Assembly: GCA_965220395.1 (NCBI GenBank)
Contig: CBDCPT010000003.1
Coordinates: 136,747 to 200,746, forward strand
DNA from: Arenicellales bacterium
Lineage (GTDB): Bacteria; Pseudomonadota; Gammaproteobacteria; Arenicellales; JAJDZL01
DNA: 64,000 nucleotides
Direction of reading: 5' to 3'
Made by a program: the position numbers and the translations under genes. Positions 38,608 to 61,602 of this stretch are shown piece after piece; position 1 is the stretch's first letter; each line of letters begins with the position of its first letter. The notes beneath the pieces were generated by a model that searched no databases, had not been told where the DNA came from, and saw nothing but the letters and a program-made list of their open reading frames with translations.

Positions 38608-40065
38608 TTATCGGGGCAGGTCAATCTTCAATTCATGCCAAATCCAAGTCGTGTCATATGGTTCTTGGCCTTGTTGCGCAGCGCGTCGATATTCCGTATT
38701 TTCCAACAGCTTAAGCCAATCAATCACCTGATGGCGGCCTTTTTTTGTCGCCGCCACCTGTCTTGGCGTTTTGTTTCCCAGCGCGGGAATAGGTTGATCA
38801 AGGGTGCGACGGTAGTGATCATCGAGATAAGAATGTAATGCCTCCAACATATCCTCAGTCGTAATCAGACTTTCTTCCTCTACCGGTTCTCTCGTTTCTT
38901 CCAGTGCTTTCTCCACGTTCTGGTACGAAATCAGAGATTGTCCCACTAGATTCCCTAGGCGGGATGCTAGAAGCACTTGCCCTCTCTCAGCGCGTTCTGC
39001 TGAATTGGCACTCAGCACCAACGCTTTCGGATGAAGCTCTACGTAACCAATAATTGTGTTACCGAATCCGGTTTCATCGGACTCAGAATACACTTCCGAT
39101 ACCGGAGTTCCCTTCCGGTGACGTGCGAACCGATATCCCGGATCCCCCGCCTCAAGCCAATCCCATTTATATTTTTCGCCTTCCCTTTCAAATACCGCTG
39201 TTTCGTCGAGCACTGCAATTACATCGGCTTGATCACCCTGAATCGGGAACCGCACTTCGCAGAATATGAACAACTCGTCGTCGCTGTTACGGATTTCCGG
39301 CAAAGGGGCCTGAGACTTGACAACGGTATCTATCATCCAAGCATGCGTGAGCATCTGTGCACAGGGTAGGGTTTCAAGCACCATTTCCCGGGAGACAGGC
39401 GGAATCGCTGCTGATTTCCCGTACTGCTTTCGCAGATCTTTGAGCATATCTTTTTTAAAGTCTTTTATCATCGTGTCTACAATTGACACGAGCTCCTGTG
39501 CTATATGGCGGCTGAGATGCATCACTGGAATCGTAAAATAATTCTTCCCGTTCAAGGAAACGACTCGCGCCGCTATACAATCCCAAATTGCCGAATTTTC
39601 CGAACCCAGCCTCTCCTGTATAGTCAATGGCCTACTGTCCCTAAGCAGGTCTCGCACCATCATGTTCCGTTCAGGATTGAGTTCAATGATCTCGTACAAA
39701 GATACCGTGGAATCCCGGAGCAACTTCAAGTAATGTCGGACGGCAACCGACTCACGTTTACCACGTCGCTTGAGGTAGTCGTTGACCACATTCAATTCGC
39801 CGTTCTCACCGAACCAACTGGCAAAGAAGTCCTCAAAGATCGCGAAGTTCAGCATTTCAGCGTTCAACTTGCCGAGATGATCAAAAATCTCATCTTCCTC
39901 AAGACCGAGAGTTTCGATAGGGATATCGAGGTGATCCCCGTATGTCAGGTGCAGAAAATTTACCCATTGGGGCTCTTCTGACCACTTCATGAGTCTCTCT
40001 ATTGCCTTGTTGATCCTTCTACTATTTGCTATCATTTTTCCGCTACCAATCAATTTGCCAAGCAC
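38608..40065 (-). CDS. Hypothetical protein with C-terminal MbcA/ParS-like motif
   Basis: Long ORF ending HYRRTLDQPIPALGNKTPRQ; start uncertain. Confidence 0.7.
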   Translation of the reverse strand: MLGKLIGSGKMIANSRRINKAIERLMKWSEEPQWVNFLHLTYGDHLDIPIETLGLEEDEIFDHLGKLNAEMLNFAIFEDFFASWFGENGELNVVNDYLKRRGKRESVAVRHYLKLLRDSTVSLYEIIELNPERNMMVRDLLRDSRPLTIQERLGSENSAIWDCIAARVVSLNGKNYFTIPVMHLSRHIAQELVSIVDTMIKDFKKDMLKDLRKQYGKSAAIPPVSREMVLETLPCAQMLTHAWMIDTVVKSQAPLPEIRNSDDELFIFCEVRFPIQGDQADVIAVLDETAVFEREGEKYKWDWLEAGDPGYRFARHRKGTPVSEVYSESDETGFGNTIIGYVELHPKALVLSANSAERAERGQVLLASRLGNLVGQSLISYQNVEKALEETREPVEEESLITTEDMLEALHSYLDDHYRRTLDQPIPALGNKTPRQVAATKKGRHQVIDWLKLLENTEYRRAAQQGQEPYDTTWIWHELKIDLPR

Positions 40066-40195
40066 TGTACTCGAAATGATAGGATATTTGTTGCGGTTAA
40101 AAAAGTGTTCGGACTGGTGTCATGTCAATCATGTAATGTCGTATATATTATAATTGATTCTTGTTTGTGTCATGATGATTTACAAGGAACTACAA

Positions 40196-40340
40196 ATGAA
40201 ACGTTATGTGGTAACACTCCAGAAATCAGAGCGAGATGAGTTGGAACAGATTACGTACAAAGGTTCTCATTTGTCGCAGAAAGTGATCAATTCGTTGATC
40301 CTGTTGAACTGTGACGAAGGTCCATTCAATGATCGGCGGG
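40196..40340 (+). pseudogene. IS630-family transposase N-terminal remnant
   Basis: MKRYVVTL..SERDELEQ..KG......NSLILL.CDE. Confidence 0.65.
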
Positions 40341-40609
40341 AGTCGGGGAGGGCAAATTTACGCTTGTACGATTTTTCATTTCAGTAGTTAGATCGAGGTT
40401 GTGTTGCTGAAATTTTTGTCGTAATTCACTCCCCTGTGTTGTGATTTTGTGCGTTGTGCGAGCGATTTGGCATGGAAATCCTGAATAACATGGCAATGCG
40501 GCGGATTCGGGCCGCATCAAATCCTGCCGCTGTTGCGGCATGGAAGCGAATTGCGTGCCTGTGCATACCGCAGGCGTTAAAAGCTGGACGGAGACATTGC
40601 GGTTTGTGA

Positions 40610-40880
40610 CGCGATCCGAATGGAGGTGCTCGTCGGCGCACACGACGAGCGTCAGTTAGAGATGCTTCGCGGCTGCTTGCGATGGCAGTCGTTCTTCCCA
40701 CCGAGCCTGTGCACTACGATGATGCGGCCGCGCTGTTCCGTCGATACCGCAGTGAAGGGGAAACCGTGTACAGGCTGATTGATTGCCTCATAGCCGCGGT
40801 CACGACCTGCATCGACGTGCCAGTGTTGCATCGCGACAGAGTATTTGACGTGTTGACCTGCTACATCGAAATTCAAACGT
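40610..40880 (+). pseudogene. VapC PIN toxin C-terminal remnant
   Basis: EVLVGA..YDDAAALFR..GETV..LIDCLIAAV..VLHRDRVFD. Confidence 0.7.
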
Positions 40881-40889
40881 TGAGTAACG

Positions 40890-41225
40890 CCACTAATAGT
40901 TGTGCTGTCAGCGCAATACCAACCTTTAGGCATCCTTCAGCGCAAGTCGAAAAGGCGCTGGTATCGATAATCACTCAGCATCCGCACTGAAAACTTCAAA
41001 ATCCTTCTCAACAAGGCGAAGTATGCGTCGGCTATACTCGGTGTAATCTTATAATTTCCGAAATTGGCCTTTCACCATTTTTCATATTCGCCAATTTCTC
41101 GTTTACGAATCAACTCCTCTAACAACTCAGCGAACAACTGAGTGGGAGTTACGTCTCGGTTAGCAACTGGTATCTGCGCTTGTATGAATTTGATATTGCG
41201 AAGTTCGACGGTAATTTTCATCATC
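40890..41225 (-). pseudogene. Decayed antitoxin plus VapC stub
   Basis: MMKITVEL...W*...DFE..DAE* overlapping a GTG start MIIDTSAFS. Confidence 0.5.
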
Positions 41226-41367
41226 CGAGCAATTTTATTGAAACATTTGTCAATCCATGTTGTACCCTAGCGCAAAAATCCATAACATGACCAGAACACG
41301 GCTTGTTTCCAACTTTCCTTGCGCATTGAAAAACTATATCTCCCTCCCTAGTACAAAAGAAAATCTA

Positions 41368-41419
41368 TTTGGAAAGACATTTCTGCCAAGGTTCGAATTG
41401 ATTCCTTTCAGGCCCACCA
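41368..41419 (+). repeat. tRNA-3'-derived att-like repeat R5
   Basis: tttggaaagacatttctgcc-aaggttcga-attga-ttcctttcaggcccacca. Confidence 0.85.
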
Positions 41420-41945
41420 GATCACAACTAGCAGAATTGTTGCTCACACATTGAACAACTTTCATATTACGGTTTAGAGACTATTCCCTGTTGCGGCCGT
41501 GCGTTACCTATCGGCTCCTCACAAAATTTCAGCAGTTCTAGGCAAGATTTATTTGAGTGCAGCTCGATATTGTCTCCTGCTTACACGCCTGTAGTCTCGC
41601 TTGAATTATGTAGTGTGCTTAATCCTGCGTTTTCAAGTCTTCCATTAGTTCTTCGATACCGTCCAAAGAATCTGGTTTTCCATCCGTGGCAACTTGCGTT
41701 GCAGCAGTTGTTGTCAAATTGGGCACCATCGTATCAAAGGGTGATGTGTTTTCAAATGGGAATTATACGGAATAGTTGACAGACGTAAAATCAGTTCGGT
41801 TTCTTCGATTTTTTAGAAGATTTTTGCTTTTCGAATTTCGGCTTGAGTTTCGGTTTCACACCCATCAGAATTGAAACAACCTCGTCGATATTGAAGTCAG
41901 TCATCTTTGGGGGTGAGGTTTTAGACATGGGACGCTTACCGAATT

Positions 41946-42409
41946 TTAAACTTGGGGATTTTGTCCAAGCTTGACAGATAATACAACTGAGCCTGTTATT
42001 CCTTGATATTCCATTGTCATATTCTTTAGAAAATCTCTGCCCAGTAAAGCACTATGTGGTTGTCCTCCAGAATGTAAATGAACTCCGCAGAAGAAACCAT
42101 ATAACGTAAAATTCAAACTTGAAATAAATATCTGTGCCAAATGGACATTCAATTCACCTTTTCCGTGCACCCAGATATTAATTGTCTGTCGATGATGGGC
42201 AATTTAAACAAATCAGCTATTGATGAATCTATGCAACTCACTGCCGCACCAGTATCTATTAACGCGTTGAATTCCGCGTTTGCCAAGTTGGGGCGCCCCG
42301 CGTCCTTCGGTATGTATTGGGTGTCAAACCCAATCTGCACTTTTAGTGTCGGCCCATAAAGAATCAGTGCCTCAGGTGAACCACTGATTCCACAGTCAAC
42401 ACTATGCAT
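41946..42409 (-). pseudogene. Retropepsin-like aspartyl protease, frameshift near 42170
   Basis: ALIDTGA in the first frame, ALLGRDFL in the second. Confidence 0.8.
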
Positions 42410-42689
42410 GCTGGGGCACTGGGCGGAAGATAACAGATGCTGGCAAAGTAACTGGGGCAGCGCCTACCTTTCTAATTAGATAAGGTCCGGCGCCGAATTT
42501 TTCGACAGCATTTTCGGCCGCAGCTTCAGAGGAATCATAAAATCCTTCTAACTTTTGATCACGAATTATTACCCATTTCCCGAAGTGGTCCGTTTCAAGC
42601 ATGCTTTGCATGCTTTCGTAGGCAGCGATTTCTTTAGATAGAACAATCTTTTTCAAATTATCGGATCTGGCTTCTGATTTAGTTGTCAT
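42402..42689 (-). CDS. Small hypothetical protein (DUF5678-like), protease partner
   Basis: GKWVII...G.YDS...A...FG.GPYLIRKVG; overlaps the protease start. Confidence 0.7.
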   Translation of the reverse strand: MTTKSEARSDNLKKIVLSKEIAAYESMQSMLETDHFGKWVIIRDQKLEGFYDSSEAAAENAVEKFGAGPYLIRKVGAAPVTLPASVIFRPVPQHA

Positions 42690-42898
42690 TTGAAATCTCC
42701 GTAGTAGTGTTGTTGATGATGTTGTCTAGATTGTAATATTTTCGGCACATACTTTACAAATGTTATACAAATGCAGCAGCAGTTCTGATATGGATTGACT
42801 TGTCAAATTTGTGGAGCAAGAAGCCCAGCGTTCGGAAAAACCCTATGGCGATCCTTGAATGTGATTTTAATAGGATGGGCGGTGGTGATTGTTTCATG

Positions 42899-45773
42899 TC
42901 AACCTCCATATATGTCGTGAGCCGTATCAAACACAGTTTGCAACGTATTTGATGTTCTTTGTTGTAACTCGTGCAAGTTTCTCACTTGGTCAAGCAACCG
43001 CTCACGAGCTTCATAATCGCAAGGTGTAGGAATAATCATTTCGTTATTGAAAATCTCTTCACGAACCTCTGGTTGAACGGCTGTTATCGCTAGGTAGTGT
43101 TCGTCAGAAAACTCTACATCACATTGATAATAAAGAACAATCATCCGATATTTTCAAACGAAGAAATTTCGGTTTTGGCGGATTAACGGGTTCAAAGGCG
43201 AATTTCGTTGCCAAATACCACAAACCAGCAAAATCTTCACTTTATAGAATGACATGATTAATCATTATTATCAATGTGTTAAACGTTTTCTGGCAGACAC
43301 TAGGTAGTAGATCTGCTTGCGAAAAATTTCTGATGTGAACGCAGCCCATAGGAGTAGAGCTTCCTCATGATTCTGGGGGCGCACAGCTAAAAACCCAGTC
43401 GTAACCAACTGTCCGTCAAACTCAGGGGGAATAATGACCGCTGTTCCGCGTGAGCTGTTATTACGGGCAAAGATTACATCGTTTTCTCGAACCAGAAGCC
43501 TTGCACGAGTTGGGAGGTTCTCAAACAGATTTTCCTGATACTTGACAATAGCCCCTTCCGGAGTTACATCGCCAATTTCAAAATACCGGAATACTTGACC
43601 CCTGAGAACATCCTCTTCACCTTTCTTCACAGGGGGCACTACCTCAAAATCTGATCCAGGACTCAGGCGCAGCACTCCGTTCTCCTCCGCTAACGACATA
43701 GCCTTCCGCGTGCGGTTTAGATCAAGCGAATAGTAAAATTGCGTCCAAGCGTCGATTGTCCAAGTCTTCAGGTGCCACGATGAACGCTTGAAACGGGCAT
43801 CCGAGATTCTCTCGGGTGTTGCTATTCGGTTTAAACAAATTGGGAGCAATACTGCAATCACGCCACTCGGCATACGCTTGTTGGAGCAGCGGGATGTTAT
43901 CCCGCTCAGGCGTATAGTGTTGATGGTCATCGTGGCCAATGTTGTTCAAGACCGCCATGAAGACATGTCCTTGTGTCTCTCCGGCTTCCCGTTTCTTGAG
44001 ATGCAGGATGGAGGTATGGACATTTGCTTGCGCACGGAAGAATGTGTTAAACGGAAGGGAAATCACCTGCCGTAGAATGAATCGTTCCAGAATGAAATCA
44101 CGGTACCGCTGGCTATCGACTCCATTGAGCACTGTGTTGTCGATGACTGTAAGTAGCTCGGCGTCGGGAGCCATAAGATCGTGGTAGCGCTCCAAGAACA
44201 ATACATTTGATTTCTCGGTCGCCGAGGGCTTGCCCGCAGTTGTAACAGCGATCTCGTATTGATTCAGGATACGTCGCTCGTCCTCGTTTGACTTCGTGTA
44301 ACCCATCGAAAATGGAGGGTTGGTAAGAACTACGTCGAACCGTAATCCATCGTCTATCAACGACTCGCTCAGCTCTTCTACCTCCCCCACAAGATCCCTG
44401 GAGAGCCCCATCGGGGACCGAATCTCCTTATCAAGTGTGTCGGCCGTGTAGATCGTGCTCCCACCATCCCCGTGAAGATACATGTTCAGGCGGGCTACCC
44501 GAGCGATCTTCTCCGCCGCGTCAATGCCATACAAATGCCGTTCATACAGGCGTTTCTTGAGTTTTTTGCGCTCTCGCTCTGTAATATCCAAACGTACGTC
44601 GATGGCGTGCACCAAAGCCGCCATCGCTTCGATCAAGAACCCACCACTGCCGCAACACCCGTCCAAAACAACAGGGAGATCCTTCCCTCTTACCCGAAAC
44701 CTGGCGGAGCGCACCATGTACTTCACCACGCTTCGAGGTGTGAAGAACTGGCCCAGTTCCTTCCCGCGCACGGTAGCGTTCAAGAATGTCTCGAACATCC
44801 GACCATTCAAATCCTCGTCGATCCCGTGCAAGTCGAAGTGTTGCAACCGCTTTACCACATCCAAAACTGTTTCCGACCGGAGATTGAGAACTTCATTAGG
44901 GAGGAAAATTCGTTTCTTCTCTTTCAGGGTAATCTGGTTCTCCAAGTCTTCTCGAATGCGACGGAATAGCAGGTCGCCGATCGGGTTGTCGCTCACGTTC
45001 TTCTCGACTTGCTCCTGAATCCATTCAACCGAAAAGTTAAAATCCGCGAGATTCGGCACCTCACCAGCCTCAATTTTGTCAGCGATTCTGCGGTCTTCGC
45101 GGAGCTTCACAAACATCAATTTCGAGAACTCGTAGAACGCATCAGTGGGTCCATACTTCTCCTTCTTCCAGATCAGATTATGGCAGTCATTAAAGGTGCG
45201 GATCAGATCGTTCAGGTCGGGACGTGCGAATTTGAAGACGCCTTCCGTTGCCCGTGCTACATCAATCGAGCCGAAAGAAATAAACGAACGAAGTTGAACG
45301 AACTTCGAATTGTCTTCCTCAAAGTCGTCGAATTCAAGTTTAAGCAAGGGGGTTGCGCTATCCCAAGCCCATAGAACGAGTTGAATCCCGTTCGTCACGC
45401 AGATATACCGCACTGGGTTCTCATTCTCGTATCGTTGGTTTAGTCCCAAAGCATAGCCCGCGACCTGATAGTGGTATTTCTCAGGCTGTTCTCCTGGAGA
45501 TTTTGCGTCTAGGACTACGACGGGGCGCGAACTGCGATCCAATAACACATAATCTGGTCTGAACATCTCCTTCTTGCTACCACGCGCTACGGCGACTTTG
45601 TGCAACGCAGTCTTGCGCTTAACTGCATCGTCTGGGTAACGCAACTTCGCGATCAGGCGGTCTACCACGTAAGGCTCAACATCAGCCTCAGATGTTAAGG
45701 TCGACCGTTCTACGAAAAGATTTTTCACTCTTTTGGGCAGTGCCTCAATGCAACCGCCCGTCTCGTCCACCAA
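42899..45773 (-). pseudogene. Fused nuclease / N6-adenine methyltransferase / TRD protein (type IIG-like RM) with a frameshift and a MITE
   Basis: RPDYV..LDAK, GQFFTPR, DGCCGSGGFL, NPPF. A +1 shift near 43740 (RRLDA/FYYS) and a 210-bp insertion in IYYL|AITAVQPE join three ORFs. Confidence 0.85.
43097..43300. mobile_element. MITE (~204 bp) in the RM gene
   Basis: Imperfect TIR gtgttcgtcagaaaac / gtgtctgccagaaaac; flanking duplication taggta (end placement ambiguous by 1-2 bp). Excision restores the frame. Confidence 0.85.
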
Positions 45774-46740
45774 CTAAATCGGCATATTTCAGTCGCTTGC
45801 CAAACAGCCCTCGAATAGTGCAGTCGATTTGCACCATCGTATCCAGTTGGCGAACATTCTGCCTGGCACTGAATTCGTCTACATATTTCTGTAGGTGCTT
45901 TGGACTCATCTTGTGGTAGACACCGTAGTATCCGCGCTTCAAGCAAGACCAGAACGATTCCGCTCCGTTTATGTGCGCTTGTCCCTTTACATACTCGCCA
46001 ATCGAGTGCTTAACGGTTTCATGTGTGTATCCATAGTTTTCAATCCCATCGTAAGCAGTGGTATCATCAGTGTAAACTGTAGAACCAGTTGAAACGCTAT
46101 CACAGACAATCTGATGAAGTGTTATGGCTTTGGTGTTTGCGACCTTGAATGACTTGATATTCTTGCTTTTGCGTTCCTTGATTCCGACAACAGCGGTCTT
46201 GCCGACAGCGCCTCTACCGGCATTCAGTTTTTTGTCCTTATGCTTATTCTTCTTTGATACGTTATTTGCCCAGCCAGTTCTGATTCGATGTGCCATAAAC
46301 CAAGCGGCAGACTGATCGACTTCAACTTCACAGCCAAATAACTTTGATACGTTATTTGCCCAGCCAGTTCTGATTCGATGTGCCATAAACCAAGCGGCAG
46401 ACTGATTTACTCCAACGTCATTTCCAAGTTTGGTGCTTGAAACACCTTTGAGGGAAGTTGAAAGTTGGTAGATCGCCATCAACCATTGCCTGTATTTGAT
46501 ATTGCTACCTTCCATCAGAGTTCCAGTTTTAACGCTGAAGTAACTTCGGCAAGGTCTGCACCAGTAAGGCATCGTTTTATGCTTGGCACTGCTTGTTTTT
46601 TCCGAATTGCACTTGGGACACACTCGACCATCTGGCCAGCGTTTTGATTCGATATAAGCCATTACATCTTGTTCTGTTTGAAACCGAGACATGAATTCGT
46701 AAAGGCTGACTCGCTTTCTTTCGTTTTTGTTCTTACGCAT
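45745..46740 (-). CDS. IS1595-family transposase with an internal duplication
   Basis: RWPDG..CPKC..C..C zinc ribbon, SAAWFMAHRIR, VEVD, YTD, HINGAESFW, HLQKYVDEF. Confidence 0.9.
   Translation of the reverse strand: MRKNKNERKRVSLYEFMSRFQTEQDVMAYIESKRWPDGRVCPKCNSEKTSSAKHKTMPYWCRPCRSYFSVKTGTLMEGSNIKYRQWLMAIYQLSTSLKGVSSTKLGNDVGVNQSAAWFMAHRIRTGWANNVSKLFGCEVEVDQSAAWFMAHRIRTGWANNVSKKNKHKDKKLNAGRGAVGKTAVVGIKERKSKNIKSFKVANTKAITLHQIVCDSVSTGSTVYTDDTTAYDGIENYGYTHETVKHSIGEYVKGQAHINGAESFWSCLKRGYYGVYHKMSPKHLQKYVDEFSARQNVRQLDTMVQIDCTIRGLFGKRLKYADLVGGRDGRLH
46252..46406 (-). repeat. 65-bp exact direct repeat inside the transposase
   Basis: 46252-46316 = 46342-46406. Confidence 0.92.
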
Positions 46741-46974
46741 AATATACTTCCAACATCAAATGAATTTTCTGTATTAGTAAGTATATTCTAAAATTTCAGG
46801 TTTGTCAACTATTCCGTATAATTCCCTTTCAAATACCACCTGATGAGTTAACATAATTCGAATGACATCGGACATGCTTAGTTCCATACTGACTGGCGCC
46901 GCAATGCCTTCATTATTAATTTTATTATTGATGCCAGCGCGAACAACCGTATTTTCGCTCATGTTTTCGCGACT

Positions 46975-47160
46975 CATTTGGTTGCCTCGCAGCACAGCAG
47001 GAACTGTTTATCTATGGTCATTTCTTGAATGGAATCCTAGTGCGGCTTGGTAACACCTCATTTGGGCCATTGACAATGCCGCTGATTATGGTGGCGACAT
47101 GAAAGATATTTCTGGTGAAACTTCGGATGATTAATCCGCTTCCTTCGAATTCCAGACAAT
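46975..47160 (+). pseudogene. 3' remnant of DUF2791 ATPase upstream of the helicase
   Basis: PRSTAG..FLEWNPSAAW*HLI..GGDMKDISGE aligns with PRNTVT..ILKQNPTAVWSDLI..GDDMSDISDGE of 52103..53407. Confidence 0.7.
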
Positions 47161-49328
47161 CCAAAGGATTTGATCGGCTGGCGAAACCAGTCCAGAGATG
47201 GATTTGGCAGAAAGGCTGGAACAGTCTTAGAGATATACAGGAATATGCGATACCAGCACTGTTAGACGAGCAGAACGACCTGATCATTGCCACCACAACA
47301 GCCAGCGGCAAAACCGAAGCAGCTTTCCTGCCCTTGATATCCGCTGTACTGGAAATGCCCGGCAGCGGCGGTTTCGATCTCGCCTACATCGGTCCGACTA
47401 AGGCGCTCATCAATGACCAGTTCGAGCGTCTCAACGACCTTTGTGCCAATCTGCAATTGCCAGTCTACCCTTGGCACGGAGACATTTCCCAAGGAATAAA
47501 AGTACGTGCGCGCAAACAATCGAGTGGAATTCTATTGATCACACCTGAGTCTCTAGAAGCATTGTTCGTGCTTCGCGGTTTGGAAATTTCCGCACTATTT
47601 TCAAGTACTCGCGCGATCGTGATTGATGAATTGCATGCACTTCTAGAGAATGAGCGCGGTATCCACTTGCGCTCGCTGCTGACCAGACTTGAAATCGCAG
47701 TAAATCGGCAGATCCGACGTATTGGACTGTCGGCAACTCTAGGCGAGATGGAATTGGTCAGAGAATATCTGCGTCCCGAAGCGCCGGATTCTGTTCGGTT
47801 GCTCAAGAGCTCATCGGATCCTCGCGAGCTCCGAGTTCAAATTCGGGGATATGTCGAAAGGAATATCGACAGCGAGTCTGAATCAGCAGCAAAAAAATCT
47901 GTTGCAGAGCATTTGTTCGCAAAACTACGTGGCTCAAACAATCTGATTTTCGCGGAGTCGCGTCGCAATGTTGAATTCTATGCGGACCACTTGCGGCAGA
48001 TTTCCGAGGACGCGCGGGTGCCCAATGAATTCCATCCTCACCACGCAAGCTTGTCCCGCAGTTTACGACTGGATGTCGAGCAGCGCTTGAAGACCACAAA
48101 ATCGGCTACCGCTATTTGCACTTCAACACTAGAGCTTGGCATAGATATTGGCGAAATTGTCTGTGTGGCACAAATTGGAATGCCATTTTCAGTTGCATCG
48201 CTGTGCCAGCGGCTTGGACGTTCCGGACGCCGACTCGGACAATCTGCGGTGCTTCGCATGTATGCCGTTGAAGCTTCGACGCATTCATCGTCGCACCCAC
48301 TGGACCGGCTGCACCTTGGACTGGTGCGCGCAATAGCGATGGTGGAGTTGCTGATTGAAGGATGGTGCGAGTCTCCCGCACCACTATCACTGCATCTTTC
48401 AACGCTGACGCATCAGATTCTTTCTGTCATTGCAGAAAAAAGTGGAGCAAGTGCCAAACAATTATTCTCAATACTGTGCAAACGTGGGCCGTTTCGTCAA
48501 GTTGATGCGAAACTTTTTTCGCAGGTGCTGAAGCACATAGGAAGCAAGGATGTGAATCTGATTGAACAGGCACCGGATGGTTCGCTGCTGCTGGGCAGGA
48601 AAGGAGAGAATCTCGTAGGCCACTACAATTTCTACGCTGTTTTTCAAACTCCTCAAGAATATCGCATCGTAACGAATGGCCAACAGTTGGGTACGCTTCC
48701 TGTTTTCATGATGATATCGGAGGGAATGACAATCGTTTTTTCCGGACGTCGGTGGCGTGTAGTATCCATTAATAACGAATCCAAGGTGATTGATGTGACT
48801 GCCGATCACGTGGGAGAGCCTCCGAAATTCGGAGGGAACGCCGGTCTCGTCCACGACACCGTAGTCAATCGCATGAGAATGGTATTGTCCGGTACACATC
48901 TGCCAAACTACCTTGACAATTGTGCCCGTACCTTACTGCAAGAATCTCGGTCTGAGTTTCACGGGCTTGGATTGGCCTCCAATAGCCAGATTCAGCTTAG
49001 TGAGAGCAATGTAGTTCTGGCAACCTGGGCGGGTACAGTGAAAACCTCAACACTAGCGATTGCACTGCGATCATATGGATATCGGGCAACAGTATATGAC
49101 GGCTTTCTTGATGTAACGAATATAGCTCGCATGCCTGACTTTATTGAGGACTTGGAGACGATCGGTGTATCACACGGGCTTGATGAAAATGCGCTGCTGG
49201 ATACGCAGTTGAGTCTGGTGACGGAGAAATATCATCCGTACTTGAATCGCGATCTGCTTCTACAGGACGCATTGAGCAGTAGATTCGATTCGAATGCTTT
49301 GCCCGGAGTGATCGGACAATTGTGGTAA
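47127..49328 (+). CDS. Lhr-like DEAD/DEAH helicase
   Basis: TASGKTEAA, ITPESLE, DELH, LSAT, TSTLELGIDIG, QRLGRSGRR. Confidence 0.92.
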   Translation: MINPLPSNSRQSKGFDRLAKPVQRWIWQKGWNSLRDIQEYAIPALLDEQNDLIIATTTASGKTEAAFLPLISAVLEMPGSGGFDLAYIGPTKALINDQFERLNDLCANLQLPVYPWHGDISQGIKVRARKQSSGILLITPESLEALFVLRGLEISALFSSTRAIVIDELHALLENERGIHLRSLLTRLEIAVNRQIRRIGLSATLGEMELVREYLRPEAPDSVRLLKSSSDPRELRVQIRGYVERNIDSESESAAKKSVAEHLFAKLRGSNNLIFAESRRNVEFYADHLRQISEDARVPNEFHPHHASLSRSLRLDVEQRLKTTKSATAICTSTLELGIDIGEIVCVAQIGMPFSVASLCQRLGRSGRRLGQSAVLRMYAVEASTHSSSHPLDRLHLGLVRAIAMVELLIEGWCESPAPLSLHLSTLTHQILSVIAEKSGASAKQLFSILCKRGPFRQVDAKLFSQVLKHIGSKDVNLIEQAPDGSLLLGRKGENLVGHYNFYAVFQTPQEYRIVTNGQQLGTLPVFMMISEGMTIVFSGRRWRVVSINNESKVIDVTADHVGEPPKFGGNAGLVHDTVVNRMRMVLSGTHLPNYLDNCARTLLQESRSEFHGLGLASNSQIQLSESNVVLATWAGTVKTSTLAIALRSYGYRATVYDGFLDVTNIARMPDFIEDLETIGVSHGLDENALLDTQLSLVTEKYHPYLNRDLLLQDALSSRFDSNALPGVIGQLW

Positions 49329-49953: not shown

Positions 49954-52113
49954 TTGAAAAAGAAAAAGAAAGGAAAATCAAGAACCATAAAAGCCAGTAG
50001 ATCTTCACGGTCTCGAAGGTCGAATAGAAAGTACAAAAGTCGGTCCGTCAGAGCGAAGGGTCCCTGGGTTCCGTTCGGACAAACGGCAACGGTTGCAGGG
50101 CACAACATCTGGGATATGGTCTATGTCGGAAGACCTCCGATATTTGAAGACGGTATAAGGGCAGACAGTGGATTTATAGACCCCCATCTGCCTGTTGCAA
50201 GAACAGGTATTGACTATCATGGCGACGGGATATATTACTGGCCGCCTAACTACACTGATATGTCCAAGCAATCTCGTGCAGCCTATTTGTATTGGCTGGC
50301 CAGCGGTCGCTCCAGCACCAATTACAGTACAAGCTATGTGCTGTTGTACTTTATCGGACTAGAGAGGCGATTTTTCTTCGACACCGCACCCTTGGAGGAA
50401 AAAATATTAATAATCACTGAAGTAGAACGTCTTTTGGAAATATATGGCGATGACTCGGCTTTGGAAAATTGTTTAGGGAATTTCGTCAGTGCAGCCAAGC
50501 TAATAATGGGATTGGATCAGAAAATCGCACCATCTGTCAAGTATCAGCAATCAGGTTCCTATACCTCCGTACTCGCTACCATAGGTATTATGGCGGATAT
50601 GAAAAAACCACTGAACGGTGAGCAACTGCTGAACTGGTATTTGGTAACGTATAGCTTACGTTCTGCTACCCTCCGCATTTTTCCTGAATTCAAGGCGCTT
50701 TTCATTTCGCTTTTCGATGAGAAATATCCGCAAGGATTGAAGATCCATGTCTCAGATTGCCACGTCAGCATCACTTATCTCGCGATTTCGTTCAACTATC
50801 GAATTGACCTAAGTGATTTCATTGGCCCCATTCCTGATGTTTCAGATCAAGCCAGACCTCTATTTGACGCCGACTCGCTTGCTGACGAAGCTGAAAAAAC
50901 TCTTGAGGGGTTCGGTCGATATTTGGGAAACAGTCCCGAACGTCGAGAAACGATTAAAGCATATGCGCTGTTGCCCGCACGAATTCGGGATCAATTTCCC
51001 TGCAGAGAAGCGGAGGAAATCTCGTCTTGGGCGAAAAAGCTAGTCAATAGCAATGCATACATTCAGGCGGAAAAGATTATTGAAAAACTTGAAGGCAGGC
51101 CGTTCGAAAGAATTAGTAGAGCACAGTTGACTAAAGCTGTGGACAAATTGGCATATCTGTCAATCGGTTTGGCGCCTGATCCGAGGTTCACGTTGTACAG
51201 CCTGAAGCCCGAGGATTCGGTAGTTCTATATCAACTGCCTGAGGCCACGATATCACTTGACGAAGCCAGCGAGAACTACTGGAGCACTTATCAAAAACTG
51301 ACTATTGCCTGTTTTGTCGCTCATTCAGATGGGCATGTTTCTGCGCGGGAACGAAGCCAACTGAATACACTAATTTCAACCAAGAAATTAACACCAGCTG
51401 AAAATATCCGATTGGGAGCTAACTTTCGCTGGATGCTCTTAGTACCGCCCAAGCTGCCAATGATACGGCAGAATCTGAAAAAACTGCCTGAACTGTCTAG
51501 GCAGGATCTTGGACAAATCGCTTTGTCAATGGCAGTAGTTGATGGCACAATTCCTCCGGAAAAAGTGGAAGCAATAACAACGATTTATAAACTGCTGGAA
51601 TTGGATGTTGCCAACGTATACAACGACTTGCACTCGCAATCCATCGGAAGCGAACCAGTAATCGTCAGATCCGCAAGCAACGGACAACAGGCATTTGCAA
51701 TTCCATCAACTCGCGAACGAAATACCAAGTTTGAGCTTGATTCCATACGGATTGATTCTGTCATGGACGACACTGCCCGAGTGTCAGCAGTACTGGGAGA
51801 TATTTTCGTAGACGACAAGCAGGATATCGAGTTCGACGAACGCAACGATGAAACCGAACTCTTACCTGGATTGGACTATCAACATGCAGCGTTTGTTGTC
51901 GAACTAATCGATCGCAGCCACTGGGAGGATGAAGAATTTGAACGGCTTGCAGCCCAGTTCAATCTGATGCCGGGAGGCGCGTTGGAAACACTGAACGAAT
52001 GGGCGTTTGAACAGTTTGAGGAAGCATTGATTGAGGAATATGAAGGTTATAATCTCAACTCGGATGTGGTGGTAGCAGTTAAACACAATTTGAGAACAGA
52101 ACATGGTCCATAA
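49954..52113 (+). CDS. TerB-N / TerB / TerB-C domain protein
   Basis: YWP.Y......RAAYL.WLA.GR, YFIGLERR, AHSDG, LMPGGALETLNEWAFE; start uncertain. Confidence 0.85.
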   Translation: MKKKKKGKSRTIKASRSSRSRRSNRKYKSRSVRAKGPWVPFGQTATVAGHNIWDMVYVGRPPIFEDGIRADSGFIDPHLPVARTGIDYHGDGIYYWPPNYTDMSKQSRAAYLYWLASGRSSTNYSTSYVLLYFIGLERRFFFDTAPLEEKILIITEVERLLEIYGDDSALENCLGNFVSAAKLIMGLDQKIAPSVKYQQSGSYTSVLATIGIMADMKKPLNGEQLLNWYLVTYSLRSATLRIFPEFKALFISLFDEKYPQGLKIHVSDCHVSITYLAISFNYRIDLSDFIGPIPDVSDQARPLFDADSLADEAEKTLEGFGRYLGNSPERRETIKAYALLPARIRDQFPCREAEEISSWAKKLVNSNAYIQAEKIIEKLEGRPFERISRAQLTKAVDKLAYLSIGLAPDPRFTLYSLKPEDSVVLYQLPEATISLDEASENYWSTYQKLTIACFVAHSDGHVSARERSQLNTLISTKKLTPAENIRLGANFRWMLLVPPKLPMIRQNLKKLPELSRQDLGQIALSMAVVDGTIPPEKVEAITTIYKLLELDVANVYNDLHSQSIGSEPVIVRSASNGQQAFAIPSTRERNTKFELDSIRIDSVMDDTARVSAVLGDIFVDDKQDIEFDERNDETELLPGLDYQHAAFVVELIDRSHWEDEEFERLAAQFNLMPGGALETLNEWAFEQFEEALIEEYEGYNLNSDVVVAVKHNLRTEHGP

Positions 52114-53407
52114 GCAAATCAAACCGCGGGAACGCGATGCGATTATTCAATCACTGTACGCTGGCGTAGTGCCCAAGTTGGGATTGCAGCATATTCAAGT
52201 GGGTCGAGCACGCGAGATTGAGGAACTGGTAAAAGATATTGACCGAATCCGCGACGGCGGTGCGGCGATTCGATTCGTGATTGGCGAGTATGGATCAGGA
52301 AAGACATTCTTCCTGAACTTGATCCAACTCGTCGCATTGGAAAAAGGAATGGTGGTCATGTCTGCCGACTTGGCGCCCGCTCGACGAATTCATGCATCGG
52401 GAGGACAGGCTCGATCTCTGTACGCAGAAATGGCGCGTAATGTGTCGACTCGAACAAAACCTGATGGTGGCGCCATGGCTTCAATCGTGGAACGCTTCAT
52501 CAGCCAGGCAGTACGCGAAGCACAGAAGAGCAACCGCGAACCGGCTGAGGTGATCCATGACAAACTGGCCCGTCTGGAGGAGTTGACAGGCGGATTCAGC
52601 TTTGCTACTGTGGTAACGCAGTACCTGGATGGCTTCAATTCTGGGAATGATCAACTCAAATCATCTGCATTGCGCTGGCTGAGAGCGGAATTCTCTACTA
52701 AAACCGAGGCTCGTTACGCACTTGGCGTGCGTACGATTGTTGACGACGCAAGCGTGTACGACCATCTCAAGATATTTGCGGAATTTGTGTGTGAGGCCGG
52801 ATATCAGGGACTCGTCGTGTCACTGGATGAACTAGTAAACATTTACAAGTTGATGTCATCGCGCGCTCGCGATGCAAACTTCGAGCAGATCTTACGCATA
52901 TTGAATGATGTGTTGCAAGGCAGTGCGAGTCACATGGGATTCATTTTCGGTGGGACGCCGGAGTTCCTGATGGACACCCGCCGCGGTATGTACAGCTATG
53001 AGGCTCTGCAGTCCCGATTGGTTGAAAATTCTTTCGTACGAGACAAGTTTGTCGATTTTGCGGGTCCTGTGATTCGGCTTTCCAACCTTGCACCCGAGGA
53101 TGTGTACGTTCTTTTAATGAATATCCGTCGAGTGATGCAGTTTGAAACTGATGAGTTTCCAGACGAAGCACTCAAAGGCTTCATGCAACACTGCGCAGAT
53201 CGAATTGGTGAGGCATATTTTCGGACGCCTCGCAATACCGTAACTCAGTTCGTACACCTACTATCCATTCTGAAACAGAATCCGACGGCCGTCTGGAGTG
53301 ACTTGATTCGTAGAGTTGATATTAGCAAGGACGAAGGGGATGATATGAGCGATATTTCCGACGGCGAAGACGATGAACTTCAGTCCTTCAAACTCAAAGC
53401 TGTTTGA
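52103..53407 (+). CDS. DUF2791 / BrxD-like ATP-binding protein
   Basis: AGVVP..GL..IQVGR..E, GEYGSGKTF, LDELVN, YSYEALQSRL. Confidence 0.88.
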   Translation: MVHKQIKPRERDAIIQSLYAGVVPKLGLQHIQVGRAREIEELVKDIDRIRDGGAAIRFVIGEYGSGKTFFLNLIQLVALEKGMVVMSADLAPARRIHASGGQARSLYAEMARNVSTRTKPDGGAMASIVERFISQAVREAQKSNREPAEVIHDKLARLEELTGGFSFATVVTQYLDGFNSGNDQLKSSALRWLRAEFSTKTEARYALGVRTIVDDASVYDHLKIFAEFVCEAGYQGLVVSLDELVNIYKLMSSRARDANFEQILRILNDVLQGSASHMGFIFGGTPEFLMDTRRGMYSYEALQSRLVENSFVRDKFVDFAGPVIRLSNLAPEDVYVLLMNIRRVMQFETDEFPDEALKGFMQHCADRIGEAYFRTPRNTVTQFVHLLSILKQNPTAVWSDLIRRVDISKDEGDDMSDISDGEDDELQSFKLKAV

Positions 53408-56409: not shown

Positions 56410-58517
56410 CAGGTGTTTCCCATGCTTTTTTTGATGTCAGAATATCCTGACAGGCGGTAACTGAAGTAATTCGCTCGACCACGGCTGTTGCGCTCATTAT
56501 GGTACAGTTTCGGTAATTGATGCACAATATTGCGTTTGTACGGAGCGAATTGTGCAGTCTCGACAATGGCAACCAAACGCAAGCGGACTGCGGCGCTTGT
56601 ATATTTCGGCTCAATCCGGGATTTGAAGCACCGCTTCAGGTCGGTGAGAATAGTGCGGCGAAGGCCTCTTTACGATTCAGGTTGAAATGGCGCAGTGCCT
56701 GCGGCACTGACTCGAAGCGGCTTTGGTTGAAAATCAGCGCCAGCGCAATGTTGTTGCACATCGCACGATTGCTCGGGCCATGGCCAGTACGGGTCAGACA
56801 GGCGTCTTCCTGGAATGTACGGTCCCGAATATGATGGTTGCTGTTTTCCACGGTCCAATGTCCGCGGTCCCACCTCAGCAGTTGCTCGGCATCGGCCCGT
56901 TCAGCGGCAACCGAAGTGATGCCATATATCGTCTCTGTGCTTGCACTGTTCGCTTCTTTGACTACCTCGCGGTCGCGCTCGATGCGAAACGCTTGGCGCA
57001 CCTGCTTGAAATCGAACTTGTGCGGGTCGTCCACTTGCAGTACTTCAATACGACGTTGCTCAATGCGACCGTGCGCCAGGGTCACCTTCTCCGAGTAACG
57101 CCGCACTTTGTGACTGTACCACTTCAGCGACTTCGCCTTCGCTAACTGCAAAGAGGTATTGTCCTTGAGCGTCAGCATATAGTCAGCCTTCCCGTCCAAG
57201 ATCAAATCGACGGTTTCAAAAGTGGTGTGCAACGCATCCAGTGTGATCACTCGACCCGCAACGTCAACCTCGCTCAGCAACTGCCGAGTCACATCCAACT
57301 CCTCGCCCTTGTTGTGGAAACTGCGGCTTGCTTTCGGTATCCCACTGCCATGCTCCACAAGTGTCACTGTCTCGTAGTGACTGTCGCCATTGCGATTGGC
57401 ACCGCGAATCCGCTTGCCGTCACTCGCAAGTGCCGGTAACTGTCTGATTCGATTGTGCGTGTATCGCGCCAAGACCTGCTCCAGCTGATCCGGATCGGTG
57501 TGCTGTATCACCCGGTGCAGCGTCGATTTGGAAACCGGCTCATACCGGCCTGTTTTCGGATTGCACCAGCCACCGATCGCGTGCAGCTCATTCTCAGAAA
57601 GAGACGCTGCAAACTGTGCCGCCGCCAACGATCCGTGAAATCCAGACAATTGCGCCAAAATCAAAGTCGAAAACGCACACGCCAGTGTGTGCTTGCGACC
57701 CTGGCCACGACGAAAATCCCGCATCTGTGACAAATCATCATGCAAACTGCGCAACTCCGGCAGCGAATGACCGCTGGCCTTGCCCTTTTTCTGCCAGCGC
57801 GACTCCAACTCGCCTTCCTGACACAGGACCCGCCTAGCATCACGACGCAAGGGCCTGACCAATAACCGCTTGATTGCATCATGCGCTTCGGTATACTTCC
57901 CACCCTTGCGGGAATAGCCCGCACTGTTTCCCACCGTCTCCCATCCGGCTGCATCGTACATGTTTCCGCGATGACGAGCCGGGTCTACAAACGTCTCCGC
58001 CAACAACAAACCGTGACCATAGTATGCCTCCCAGTCATCACTTAAGCGCCGGCAAATCAACTTCAGCACGTGCGAACCAAGATTCGGATAACAACCGGCA
58101 TCGTCAAGCATCGCGAAACGGGTGTTGTTCGCGATCAAATGCAATCGGTGCCACTGCTGCTCAGGCTGCCAGCCAATCCAATGCTCGCGCGCAGCCGATT
58201 TAAAGGAACCGGTCTGCCACCCGCAAAGACACACCCACTGCCCCTTATACTCAACGATGTAACGCAGACTGCGACCTGCAAATCGCTTGAATCCAAGATC
58301 ATGATGCGTACGCATCAGCCGATCCCACTTCGCAAATTCGCTCGTGCGCGCAAGACGTACCGTCACCTCGCCAGTGCGAATCGACTTGCTGGTTCTGCGG
58401 TCATGACTGTTCATAACCGCATATATACTATATCGGTATGGAAAAAGCCAGTCCTGCCTGCAAATTTATACAACCGTTGTGGTTTTACTGTGATTTAGTT
58501 AGCGTGGGAACACCCTG
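56410..58517 (-). mobile_element. ISAs1-family insertion sequence, 2108 bp
   Basis: TIR caggtgtttcccatgc / cagggtgttcccacgc; 9-bp target duplication GAATCGAGT (56401-56409 / 58518-58526). Confidence 0.9.
56636..58414 (-). CDS. ISAs1 transposase with N-terminal DUF4338 (DruA-like) domain
   Basis: N-terminus RE.WIGW..IANNTRF..ETFVD; C-terminus DFRR.QG, DGK..RG, TLDALHT, HGRIE.R, RGHW.VEN..H..RD..F.ED. Confidence 0.88.
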   Translation of the reverse strand: MNSHDRRTSKSIRTGEVTVRLARTSEFAKWDRLMRTHHDLGFKRFAGRSLRYIVEYKGQWVCLCGWQTGSFKSAAREHWIGWQPEQQWHRLHLIANNTRFAMLDDAGCYPNLGSHVLKLICRRLSDDWEAYYGHGLLLAETFVDPARHRGNMYDAAGWETVGNSAGYSRKGGKYTEAHDAIKRLLVRPLRRDARRVLCQEGELESRWQKKGKASGHSLPELRSLHDDLSQMRDFRRGQGRKHTLACAFSTLILAQLSGFHGSLAAAQFAASLSENELHAIGGWCNPKTGRYEPVSKSTLHRVIQHTDPDQLEQVLARYTHNRIRQLPALASDGKRIRGANRNGDSHYETVTLVEHGSGIPKASRSFHNKGEELDVTRQLLSEVDVAGRVITLDALHTTFETVDLILDGKADYMLTLKDNTSLQLAKAKSLKWYSHKVRRYSEKVTLAHGRIEQRRIEVLQVDDPHKFDFKQVRQAFRIERDREVVKEANSASTETIYGITSVAAERADAEQLLRWDRGHWTVENSNHHIRDRTFQEDACLTRTGHGPSNRAMCNNIALALIFNQSRFESVPQALRHFNLNRKEAFAALFSPT

Positions 58518-60435: not shown

Positions 60436-61602
60436 CTAATCATCAATATCTTCATTCAGAATTGAGATGTACTGAGCATATGAATAAATGCGGTTTCGCT
60501 TTCTATTCGTAATTTCACGAGCAATTCCAGCCTGTTCAAGCGCAGACATGCCATTCGTAACTGCAGGAATCGAAAGATCGGTTTCAGTAGCGATATTTCT
60601 AAGAGTTGAAATTGGACGCAATTGAAGCGCTTGTTGAACAAGCAAAGCTGAGGCCTTGAAACGCGCGAAATTTCGAATTCGTAACGAGTCGTCACGAAAA
60701 AGCACATTAAGTCGACTAGCGACTGAAATTGCGTTCTTTGACGTTTCAGTGATGCCCTCAAGAAAGAATCTTAGCCAAGCCTCCCAGTCGCCGTGATGTC
60801 TTACGGCATCCAGTAACGAATAATAATCACTTCGATTTTTTTTAAAATGTAGACTGAGGTACAAGATTGGCTCACTCAGTAACCCTTCGTGGCACAATTG
60901 CAAAGCGATCAATAAGCGTCCCACTCGTCCATTTCCATCAAGAAAGGGATGAATCGTCTCAAATTGAACATGGGATAGTCCGGCCCGAATGAGAGCCGAA
61001 TGTCCACGATCATCGGAATGCATATAAAGCTCCAAATCAGACATACACTTTTCGACAAAATTTGTTGGTGGTGGTACGAAACGAGCGTTTCCCGGGCGAG
61101 TTCCTCCTAGCCAGTTCTGAGATCGCCGAAATTCTCCAGGTAATTTTTTACTCCCCCGGCCAGAAGATAAGAGTTTCTTGTGAATCTCGCAGATTAGACG
61201 ATTACAGAGCGGAAAATTATCTTCTCGTATACGTCGGAATCCGTATTCAAGGGCGGACACATAGTTTGAGACTTCAACTACATCGTCTACTGGAACCCCC
61301 GGAGCTTGGGTCAACTCGAATAGCATAAGATCCGACAAGGTGGACTGCGTTCCTTCAATCTGTGATGAGAGTACCGCTTCTCTTCGGATATATGCATAGA
61401 TAAATAGCCATGGCTCAGGCAGTATCGTCGCAATGCTGTCCAGTTGCCCTAGTGCAAATATCGCGCTGTCTAACGAATGCTGTAAATACTTCATATCCAG
61501 AACATCTTTTGGCGGCAGCGGATTTGGAATAAAGGCTCTTACTTGTTCATCTCCAATGGATGTAATTTCATAAAATCCTGTTTGTTGACGTTTCATGACC
61601 AC
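60436..61602 (-). CDS. Fic family protein
   Basis: EAVLSSQIEGTQ, HPFLDGNGRVGR. Confidence 0.92.
   Translation of the reverse strand: MVMKRQQTGFYEITSIGDEQVRAFIPNPLPPKDVLDMKYLQHSLDSAIFALGQLDSIATILPEPWLFIYAYIRREAVLSSQIEGTQSTLSDLMLFELTQAPGVPVDDVVEVSNYVSALEYGFRRIREDNFPLCNRLICEIHKKLLSSGRGSKKLPGEFRRSQNWLGGTRPGNARFVPPPTNFVEKCMSDLELYMHSDDRGHSALIRAGLSHVQFETIHPFLDGNGRVGRLLIALQLCHEGLLSEPILYLSLHFKKNRSDYYSLLDAVRHHGDWEAWLRFFLEGITETSKNAISVASRLNVLFRDDSLRIRNFARFKASALLVQQALQLRPISTLRNIATETDLSIPAVTNGMSALEQAGIAREITNRKRNRIYSYAQYISILNEDIDD

Follow-up and report, generated by a model that had tools for sequence, protein, structure and literature searches.

A probable IS1595-family transporter insertion sequence with restriction-modification and protease cargo, apparently decayed, in an antitoxin-like gene of an Arenicellales bacterium

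Which kind of element interrupts an antitoxin-like gene of an Arenicellales bacterium, and how did a restriction-modification (RM) gene and a protease gene pair come to lie between its ends? The locus was analyzed within a stretch of 64,000 nt from the assembly GCA_965220395.1 (contig CBDCPT010000003.1, positions 136,747 to 200,746 of the forward strand), which is called the window and to which all plain coordinates refer. The region 41758-46826 was interpreted, with a probability of about 0.9, as a transporter insertion sequence (tIS) of the IS1595 family, in which passengers lie between the transposase gene and the far terminal inverted repeat (TIR). The passengers inside the ends are unrelated to transposition and comprise the RM gene, the protease gene pair, and remnants. 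To judge from its lesions, this copy is a decayed, non-autonomous relic, and neither a working vehicle nor a working defence gene.

The element has a length of 5069 bp and is edged by perfect inverted repeats of 24 bp. The TIR GGGAATTATACGGAATAGTTGACA at the cargo end, distal to the transposase gene (41758-41781, plus strand), and its exact reverse complement at the transposase end (46803-46826, minus strand) agree at 24 of 24 positions. They are followed outward by an 8-bp target site duplication (TSD), TTTCAAAT, the copies of which at 41750-41757 and 46827-46834 are identical at all eight positions. A repeat search yielded one long inverted pair enclosing the region, and when the 24-mer was searched with up to three mismatches, two sites were found in the window and none in 100 shuffles. 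The repeats and the duplication, which had been claimed in an original prediction made from the letters of the window, were hereby confirmed. All genes of the element are on the minus strand, its G+C content is 46% (about 49% for the genome), and in a whole-genome search the 5069-bp arrangement was found as a single copy. An Rfam scan of 40000-48000 gave nothing at the gathering score.

The insertion interrupts a gene of the RelB/DinJ type. The N-terminal half of this gene, with the start MSENT at 46962, lies at 46835-46962 on the minus strand, and the fragment alone matches RelB with E=0.032; the C-terminal half (41619-41757, minus strand) has its stop codon at 41619-41621 and includes the left TSD copy as its last 8 bp. 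In silico excision of the element and one TSD copy led to a single 88-aa frame starting with MSENT, which was the outcome that the original prediction had described as a restored DinJ-like frame. The restored frame could be aligned from the first to the last residue, across the junction, with the uninterrupted genes of two congeners (48% and 49% identity). One uninterrupted homologue, which is 48% identical to the restored frame over 88 aa, is a full-length RelB/DinJ member (PF04221, E=2.9e-22). The target is apparently an orphan relB/dinJ-type antitoxin gene: no toxin-size open reading frame (ORF) was found downstream of relB in the window or after the homologue in the relative G024. The comparison set comprised 41 genomes, i.e., the genome under study (G000) and 40 relatives.

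The element encodes an IS1595-family transposase, as had been predicted. The gene (331 aa, rearranged; 45745-46740, minus strand) matched DDE_Tnp_IS1595 (PF12762, ISXO2-like catalytic domain) with E=1.1e-35, Zn_ribbon_IS1595 (PF12760) in its N-terminal zinc ribbon with E=2.7e-8 (34.1 bits, cut-off 25.4), and the NCBIfam model transpos_IS1595 with 159 bits (cut-off 75). The nearest annotated plasmid genes are named 'IS1595 family transposase' and are at most 46% identical. A promoter-like site for the transposase gene, recognized by a consensus match only (11 of 12 positions), is present at 46780-46808 on the minus strand, with a -35 hexamer, TTGACA, that coincides with the inner end of the TIR. 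The ends read GGGAATTAT in this element and in 17 relatives that were delimited in the survey reported below. They fit ggnnatTAT, which we take to be the end consensus of the ISNwi1 group, to which the element may belong.

The genome-wide search for the TIR revealed six perfect copies, which edge three elements (5069, 6761, and 2519 bp); these differ in their cargo, and each has an 8-bp TSD of its own. The 6761-bp sister is located at C1:506606-513366 (TSD ATATTTTG) and the 2519-bp sister at C1:1600261-1602779 (TSD AAAAATTA). What the three large elements have in common is limited to the transposase gene and some 150 bp at the far end; the interior differs throughout. Both sisters have intact transposases, with 88% and 83% protein identity to the window copy, and their ends are identical to those of the window element. 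Variant ends edge a 1331-bp cargo-free copy with a frameshifted transposase gene and two 150-bp derivatives that consist of two IS1595 ends, i.e., miniature inverted-repeat transposable elements (MITEs). The latter are located at C1:607782-607931 and C3:238586-238735, and one of them has a clean 8-bp TSD (AATTAAAA). The G+C content of the 6761-bp sister is 54%, compared with 46% for the window element, owing to transposase-like ORFs of foreign, high-GC character (792, 356, and 277 aa) that are nested within its cargo.

Part of the element was also matched in 22 of 24 congeners, and the 16 genomes from other families of the order gave no match. G024 contains two 4213-bp copies that are identical base for base, have perfect ends, and are flanked by the TSDs AAACGAAA and TAAAAAAT; another genome has two 3149-bp copies with different TSDs. 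In G022, a 3847-bp element with the TSD AAATGAAA lies at another site and has an intact 318-aa transposase and an uninterrupted RM gene of 887 aa. This element is co-linear with the window element, except that it lacks the protease segment and a MITE, and its RM gene is about 93% identical to the window RM gene at the DNA level. G000, G022, and G024 are close relatives (the matched 1.6-1.7 kb of a 3-kb glpD-glpK query were 96% identical), and the elements are at different places in them. Movement of the whole unit together with its cargo was in this way observed for the family, not for the 5069-bp arrangement. The sisters with the same TIR, individual TSDs, and different cargo, together with the moved copies, support the earlier proposal of a single insertion sequence as the vehicle, and the passengers of the sister elements were catalogued in the genome, the congeners, and distant relatives.

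The copies in G024 (L033 and L034, C1:526569-530781 and 2405935-2410147) also contain a nested DDE_Tnp_1/DUF4372 insertion sequence. They have in common with L036 (G022 C1:2080195-2082903) a SocA/Panacea-domain gene (161 aa) that overlaps a gene for a 119-aa membrane protein, and this gene pair is likely to be a toxin-antitoxin module.

The RM gene starts with a TTG at 45773, overlaps the last 29 nt of the transposase gene, and has a length of 2.66 kb. The predicted gene of about 2.7 kb for a nuclease, a methyltransferase, and a target recognition domain (TRD) at the transposase stop was hence found, in three pieces on the minus strand (45773-43722, 43939-43271, and 43144-42899). The respective ORFs encode the nuclease-methyltransferase (43722-45773; N6_Mtase, E=1.8e-32), 222 aa (43271-43939), and 81 aa (42899-43144). 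The N-terminal part (43740-45773, minus strand) comprises three parts, namely a PD-(D/E)XK nuclease (PD...DAK), a helical linker, and an N6-adenine methyltransferase of the gamma class, in which motif I is DGCCGSGGF and motif IV is NPPF. At 43739, an extra base (T on the plus strand) that is missing from the intact allele and from the contig of a relative causes a +1 frameshift, which separates ...RRLDA from FYYSL... The specificity (TRD) part at 43303-43738 (minus strand) continues in the frame of the 222-aa ORF and matches the intact allele. Next, a 208-bp MITE (TAGTGT...ACACTA; 43095-43302) severs the last part of the gene, the C-terminal helix of the specificity domain (42899-43094, minus strand), the DNA of which is 100% identical to the congener allele. 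The insert and its duplication amount to 210 bp, with TAGGTA on both sides, and when these 210 bp were taken out, the 222-aa and 81-aa ORFs fused into one frame matching G022 to its end. Without the MITE and the extra base, the gene is co-linear with the intact 887-aa gene of G022. A global alignment of the transposase-RM stretch with G022 (2954 positions) contained 204 mismatches and a single gap, namely the extra T at 43739.

The MITE belongs to a family with 19 genome copies at 99% identity or more, including the window copy, each between direct TAnnTA repeats; no parent element was identified. The copies are 99-100% identical (e.g., G000 C1:306461-306668), their target resembles CTAnnTAG, and the family has been active recently. 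The last 224 bp of the RM gene (42875-43098) are 100% identical to G022, compared with about 93% elsewhere, and the boundary is at the MITE site, which suggests recent recombination between co-occurring relatives.

The intact RM allele of G022 (P0001) was used to characterize the protein. It matched N6_Mtase with E=2.6e-34 and Eco57I with E=1.3e-12, while the score for HSDR_N_2 was 17-18 bits, below the cut-off of 25 (94 bits were obtained with the related cargo of locus L054). Among solved structures, RM.BsaXI was matched with E=1.9e-25 (residues 25-599) and type I S subunits with E=1.3e-10 (residues 722-869), and the target-recognition part also matched the S-like protein MAD5 (E=2.9e-6). 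An identity with MAD2 of the methylation-associated defence system (MADS) was considered and rejected, the score being 185.8 bits with an NCBIfam equivalog cut-off of 720, and only the methyltransferase core is in common. Nuclease and methyltransferase are present in one chain of 887 aa (PD74...D89-A-K91 and NPPF485-488). In an alignment of 31 homologues, P73, D74, A90, K91, the glycines of motif I, and N485-P-P-F488 were invariant, and D89 was present in at least 90%. The AlphaFold model computed from this alignment had a mean pLDDT of 85 and a pTM of 0.80, and its best fold matches were BsaXI (E=1.2e-21), BpuSI (E=1.2e-20, whole chain aligned), and DrdV. The protein has one HsdS-like TRD and a C-terminal helix of 36 residues. 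The sequence and fold matches identify it, at the level of family and predicted structure, as a single-chain nuclease-methyltransferase-TRD enzyme of the type IIG/IIB kind, in agreement with the originally predicted type IIG-like gene, the window copy of which is broken. Its enzyme activities would be those of the family, and it may act as a dimer on a symmetric bipartite site.

RM.BsaXI (type IIB, PDB 8w0p/8w2p) and RM.BpuSI (type IIG, PDB 3s1s) have the same order of an N-terminal PD-(D/E)XK nuclease and a gamma N6-adenine methyltransferase, and BpuSI aligns with the model along its full length including the TRD. The identity of the RM protein to both is only 15-20%, and BsaXI has a separate S subunit with two TRDs, in contrast to the single fused HsdS-like half (one TRD and a long C-terminal helix) encoded by the element.

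Among 31 genomes of the genus, the RM gene was matched with E<=1e-20 in eight, with more than 90% identity only in G000 and G022, and with 28-36% over the methyltransferase part in the others. In the two genomes with more than 90% identity the gene is inside the ends of the insertion sequence, and at this identity the RM gene was not found without these ends. A further 80 metagenome loci encode RM relatives with 37-62% identity, many of them near full length. An association of the RM family with IS1595 was considered and rejected, as a transposase was found in only one of 51 metagenome loci with at least 1200 bp upstream (L117). Mostly, the RM protein family is not on IS1595 elements.

The second passenger was originally described as a DUF5678-like/retropepsin pair, and the two halves of this description fared differently. 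The retropepsin-like aspartic protease gene (41946-42409, minus strand) is in two frames, 42149-42409 with the active-site motif DTGA (86 aa) and 41946-42170 with the C-terminal half (74 aa). The frame changes after ...ISG, near 42170, where one base is missing in comparison with an intact orthologue. The N-terminal half gave weak Pfam matches (gag-asp_proteas, E=0.0029; 18.6 bits, below the cut-off), and the orthologue in G013, a single frame of 149 aa, reached 29.3 bits with a cut-off of 28.2; DTGA is invariant in four retropepsin sequences. The retropepsin assignment hence stood. The small protein gene of 95 aa (42402-42689, minus strand), which overlaps the protease gene start by 8 nt, had no Pfam match at E up to 5, and its assignment to DUF5678 is plausible and below threshold. 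It matched the 98-aa protein of the pair in the 6761-bp sister (BLASTP, E=1e-6), which reached 20.5 bits for DUF5678 (PF18929; cut-off 23.2), and DUF5678 is present in 10% of the members of its nearest Atlas cluster.

The pair in the 6761-bp sister is the second one of this genome (L013:1709-2523, G000 C1). Between the proteases of the window pair (or its orthologue) and the sister's pair, tblastn and BLASTP gave no match, and only the small proteins match; the two proteases have only the family in common: each of them or its orthologue scores above the cut-off for gag-asp_proteas, and DTGA is conserved without exception. Close relatives of the window pair, with small proteins of 65-67% identity, were found in congeners in three unrelated chromosomal contexts. 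In G013 the pair is between the genes for nitrile hydratase alpha and beta (L037:2731-3421), in G005 beside an Xre/MbcA-type antitoxin gene (L038:2742-3444), and in G016 between branched-chain amino-acid permease genes and a ClpP-like protease gene (L039:2976-3597). By its distribution, the pair looks like a roaming two-gene cassette that lacks a mobility gene of its own. In the literature collection that was searched, no paper on the DUF5678-like/retropepsin pair was found, and PADLOC gave no match for it, for the partners in the Panacea modules, or for the other unannotated cargo.

Two further remnants are present between the protease pair and the RM gene. The first is a solo 34-bp end of another repeated element (42777-42810, plus strand); its four other genome copies (G000 C1:571184, C1:1551445, C4:407263, and C4:1435354) run into shared sequence that is absent here. 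The second, at 42801-42885 (plus strand), is a remnant of a zinc-ribbon membrane-protein gene with 76% DNA identity over 85 bp, which is intact (64 aa) in the 2519-bp sister.

This mosaic of a solo end, a gene remnant common with the 2519-bp sister, and a MITE raises the question of whether a plain insertion sequence landed in the antitoxin gene and the cargo accreted later at the site, without ever travelling between the ends. Such a patchwork would also be in line with the lack of the protease segment in the G022 allele and in an abundant relative represented in the reads, and with the 100% identity of the last 224 bp of the RM gene to G022, which suggests recent recombination. In contrast, the junctions between transposase and RM gene and between RM gene and left end are the same in G022, at another site and with another TSD, and therefore, the RM gene travelled inside the ends. 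In addition, transposition of such units as a whole is evident from G024, where two sites hold identical copies with cargo, and later additions such as the MITE and perhaps the protease segment are compatible with a tIS. Accretion at the site as the sole origin of the cargo is therefore quite unlikely, and the tIS interpretation was retained.

The transposase gene of the window copy has been rearranged. Directly after the first catalytic Asp, 24 nt encoding ETYIGGKE are swapped for a 63-nt duplicate of upstream sequence (21 aa), with repeat copies at 46252-46337 and 46342-46427, and the sister transposases read FGCEVEVDETYIGGKEKNKH where the window copy reads FGCEVEVDQSAAWFMAHRIRTGWANNVSKKNKH. 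The catalytic core around this residue (D-E-T-Y-I-G-G in the sisters) is incomplete, which bears on activity and not on family membership. Correspondingly, the Pfam profile is covered from position 5 to 153 in the intact allele (149 bits) and from position 17 to 153 in the window copy (123 bits). Because the motif is missing, the window transposase has presumably lost its function. This rearrangement, the MITE in the RM gene, and the frameshift of the retropepsin gene had no place in the original prediction.

The reads of public runs were used to examine the arrangement. Runs X3 and X4 represent one sample, perhaps the source sample of the assembly, and in these runs contigs at depth 38-49 covered 41300-41876 (left junction), 41857-42806, and 46802-47300 (right junction) with 0 differences. 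Both junctions of the predicted TIRs and TSD are hence bridged by contigs. The region of the protease frameshift was covered by contigs at depth 38-46 with 0 differences, and 45772-46060 was covered with 0 differences in X4 only, at the organism's own depth. Another set of contigs, with a depth of 260-340, represents a variant that lacks the MITE (210 bp skipped), the extra base at 43739, and the protease segment (972 bp skipped). The transposase gene of this variant is unrearranged (61 bp skipped, 22 other letters instead), and about 6% of its other positions differ (145 in 2501 letters). This second set shows that a more abundant relative with an intact allele co-occurs with the organism. 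In run X1, a joint between 41779 and 46810 was found (depth 7, 25 letters on the shorter side); it is most likely a short two-end derivative of another organism and was not used.

The presence of this relative, at a depth of 260-340 compared with about 45 for the organism, could have led to an assembly chimera, in which reads of the organism are mixed with those of the relative carrying the intact element. Organism and relative have an identical 215-bp stretch adjoining the high-copy MITE. Yet at the depth of the organism itself (38-49), contigs that show 0 differences extend over both junctions, the protease segment in its entirety, and 45772-46060, and the transposase-RM sequence of the window deviates by about 6% (145/2501) from the abundant variant and is therefore not the sequence of that variant. 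A chimera has very little probability in view of these results.

It is similarly improbable that the element is still functional, i.e., that both single-base frameshifts come from misassembly or are overcome by readthrough and that the rearranged transposase is active. The catalytic Asp is retained in the transposase (EVEVD), but the loss of 24 nt and gain of 63 nt remove Pfam positions 5-16, a stretch that the intact allele retains. As to the RM frameshift, it consists of a single base within a short run and lies outside the contigs listed at the genome's depth, but the 208-bp MITE splits the RM gene regardless of it, and the protease frameshift region showed 0 differences in contigs at depth 38-46. 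The MITE and the transposase rearrangement are not of the kind of single-base assembly errors.

Next, distant relatives were surveyed with the intact transposase as query and one genome per species. This yielded 55 loci, labelled as metagenome-assembled genomes (MAGs) of Arenicellales and many other phyla; 13 partial matches were dropped and the 42 near-full matches were examined with a screen for TIRs and TSDs (16-mer end with at most two mismatches, 8-bp TSD with at most one mismatch). The delimited loci comprised four cargo-free elements of 1276-1298 bp and 13 loci (11 distinct elements) of 2193-5578 bp with cargo. RM or methylase cargo was found in five of the 11 distinct cargo-bearing relatives, from other phyla: a methylase-Mrr fusion (L047), a 749-aa protein of the Eco57I/MmeI methylase type (L049), an HSDR_N_2-methylase protein with a separate S subunit (L054), a lone methylase (L057), and a type II endonuclease (L061). 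L041, which is G024, carries the SocA/Panacea antitoxin-domain gene, and the cargo of the remaining delimited elements is unannotated. The 24 collected TSDs of 8 bp had an A+T content of 85%. On the metagenome contig L117, a 3764-bp element with GGGAATTAT... ends and the TSD ATTGAAAA contains a transposase gene (44% identity) followed by an RM gene (54% identity).

A small ORF is present at the far end of most of these elements. In the window it encodes 45 aa (41791-41928, minus strand), with the core MTDFNIDEVVSILMGVKPK and, after it, a tail rich in Lys. It has no Pfam match, and in the sister elements it is likewise conserved at the end where the cargo lies. The Arenicellales versions have the core MTDFxxDEVVSILLGVKPK and a Lys-rich tail, the versions in other phyla read ...TPEEVAKAL..., two of them also with PRGRP, and the similarity between the two kinds is weak (18-26%). 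Examples are L041:11942-12091, L054:12912-13070, and L055:8956-9111, and the cargo is always located between the small ORF and the transposase gene. The ORF may be a gene, perhaps for an accessory DNA-binding protein, or conserved end DNA.

Several results weigh against the tIS interpretation. An empty site was not found, since a search with the DNA of the right flank in the 31 genomes of the genus gave no orthologous relB-sngC junction (sngC homologues were present in three and relB-like paralogues in two), and no contig in four runs joins 41757 to 46835. The G022 allele lacks the 972-bp segment with the protease pair, at which neither a TIR nor a TSD but only a 2-bp microhomology was detected, and a tIS does not by itself account for the entry of this segment. 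The 1331-bp cargo-free copy and one of the 150-bp MITEs lack a clean TSD, and the yield of the survey was limited, as the screen delimited 17 of the 42 loci. Furthermore, the read support is perhaps derived from the assembly's own sample and so is not independent, and position 43739 is not covered by contigs listed at the genome's depth, so that the RM frameshift may be an assembly error.

The element has precedents. The term tIS was defined on the IS1595 family by Siguier, Gagnevin and Chandler 2009 (Res Microbiol 160:232), as cited in PMC3129680, and according to a passage of the TnCentral preprint (10.1101/2021.05.26.445724), tIS are so far limited to IS1595 and IS66. The window element resembles the tIS of IS1595, in so far as these sources describe them, in having one IS1595-type transposase, TIRs, an 8-bp duplication, and passengers inside the ends. 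In contrast to known tIS, its host lineage is Arenicellales MAGs, and its particular cargo and decayed state also set it apart. Furuta, Abe and Kobayashi 2010 (PMC2853133) list Siguier 2009 with other reports in which insertion sequences flank RM genes or lone methylase genes, and passages of the same article describe TIR-bounded RM units with 8-bp duplications. A unit of Neisseria gonorrhoeae has 26/26 TIRs, a type IIG RM homologue, an S-subunit homologue, and a COG3677 transposase-like gene. In those passages as here, a type IIG-like RM gene and a transposase-like gene are in one TIR unit with an 8-bp TSD, and an empty site or a restored target shows the insertion. Unlike that unit, the window element has a specificity domain fused to the RM protein and a transposase of identified family, and movement is documented by its sisters; in the account given there, the RM homologue is truncated and a mobilizing activity is left open. 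The concept of MITEs and other non-autonomous derivatives of insertion sequences that are mobilized in trans is treated in part of PMC3129680. The window copy is similar to MITEs in that it has intact ends, a damaged transposase, and intact related transposases in the genome, where 150-bp two-end derivatives exist, but it differs in having 5 kb and in still containing a broken transposase and cargo genes.

From these results, the following sequence of events can be proposed. The zinc-ribbon DDE transposase would bind both 24-bp ends and insert the whole unit into AT-rich 8-bp targets, which would be duplicated. Transcription would start from the promoter with its -35 hexamer in the end repeat and probably run from the transposase gene into the cargo, so that both would be co-transcribed. 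The RM passenger could defend the host and penalize loss of the element, and the second passenger would be a two-gene cassette for a DUF5678-like protein and a retropepsin-like protease that is itself mobile. The unit would have inserted into the relB/dinJ-type gene 120 bp upstream of a Shango operon, followed by decay of the transposase, RM, and protease genes. At present, only the intact transposases of the two sisters in the same genome, which have identical ends, could, presumably, move the relic in trans.

The neighbouring region contains a complete Shango system beside the insertion, with SngC at 47115-49328 (848 bits), SngA at 49954-52113 (TerB-N/TerB-C), and SngB at 52103-53407 (BrxD-like ATPase), and the start of sngC is 120 bp from the start of the interrupted antitoxin gene. 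Further on are SoFic (60436-61602, 386 bits) and the PDC-S01 candidate defence gene (61934-63136, AAA_14 and DUF4143). With Shango, SoFic, and PDC-S01 nearby, the insertion is, by annotation, at the edge of a defence island. A 592-aa ORF at 56636-58414 (minus strand) has a DruA-like N-terminal part (PF14236, E=1.3e-14) and a DDE_Tnp_1 transposase domain.

We also consider a more far-reaching interpretation, which at present is tentative and rather doubtful. IS1595 elements with GGGAATTAT ends might have a fixed cargo bay, from the transposase stop to the small terminal ORF, that is filled preferentially and across distant phyla with self-stabilizing or defence genes read from the transposase promoter, so that the element would be a dedicated small shuttle. 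The genes concerned would be single-chain or two-gene RM systems, methylase-Mrr fusions, and Panacea-type antitoxin modules. If this were true, the DUF5678-like/retropepsin pair would represent a new type of mobile cassette, in which two genes serve addiction or defence. The pair occurs as cargo in two elements of the genome, in distantly related versions, and in three unrelated chromosomal contexts in congeners.

The knowledge of this kind of element is unchanged by the present case, as tIS of IS1595 and RM genes in such units have already been published. It adds an example, with intact and decayed alleles in close relatives, of how very small transposons spread RM and toxin-antitoxin-like genes. 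Leads for further work are the recurrent RM and methylase cargo, the conserved small terminal ORF, and the roaming protease pair. The window copy also shows the aftermath of such an insertion, in which the transposase, RM, and protease genes decay while the ends stay perfect and would be usable by the transposase of a sister.

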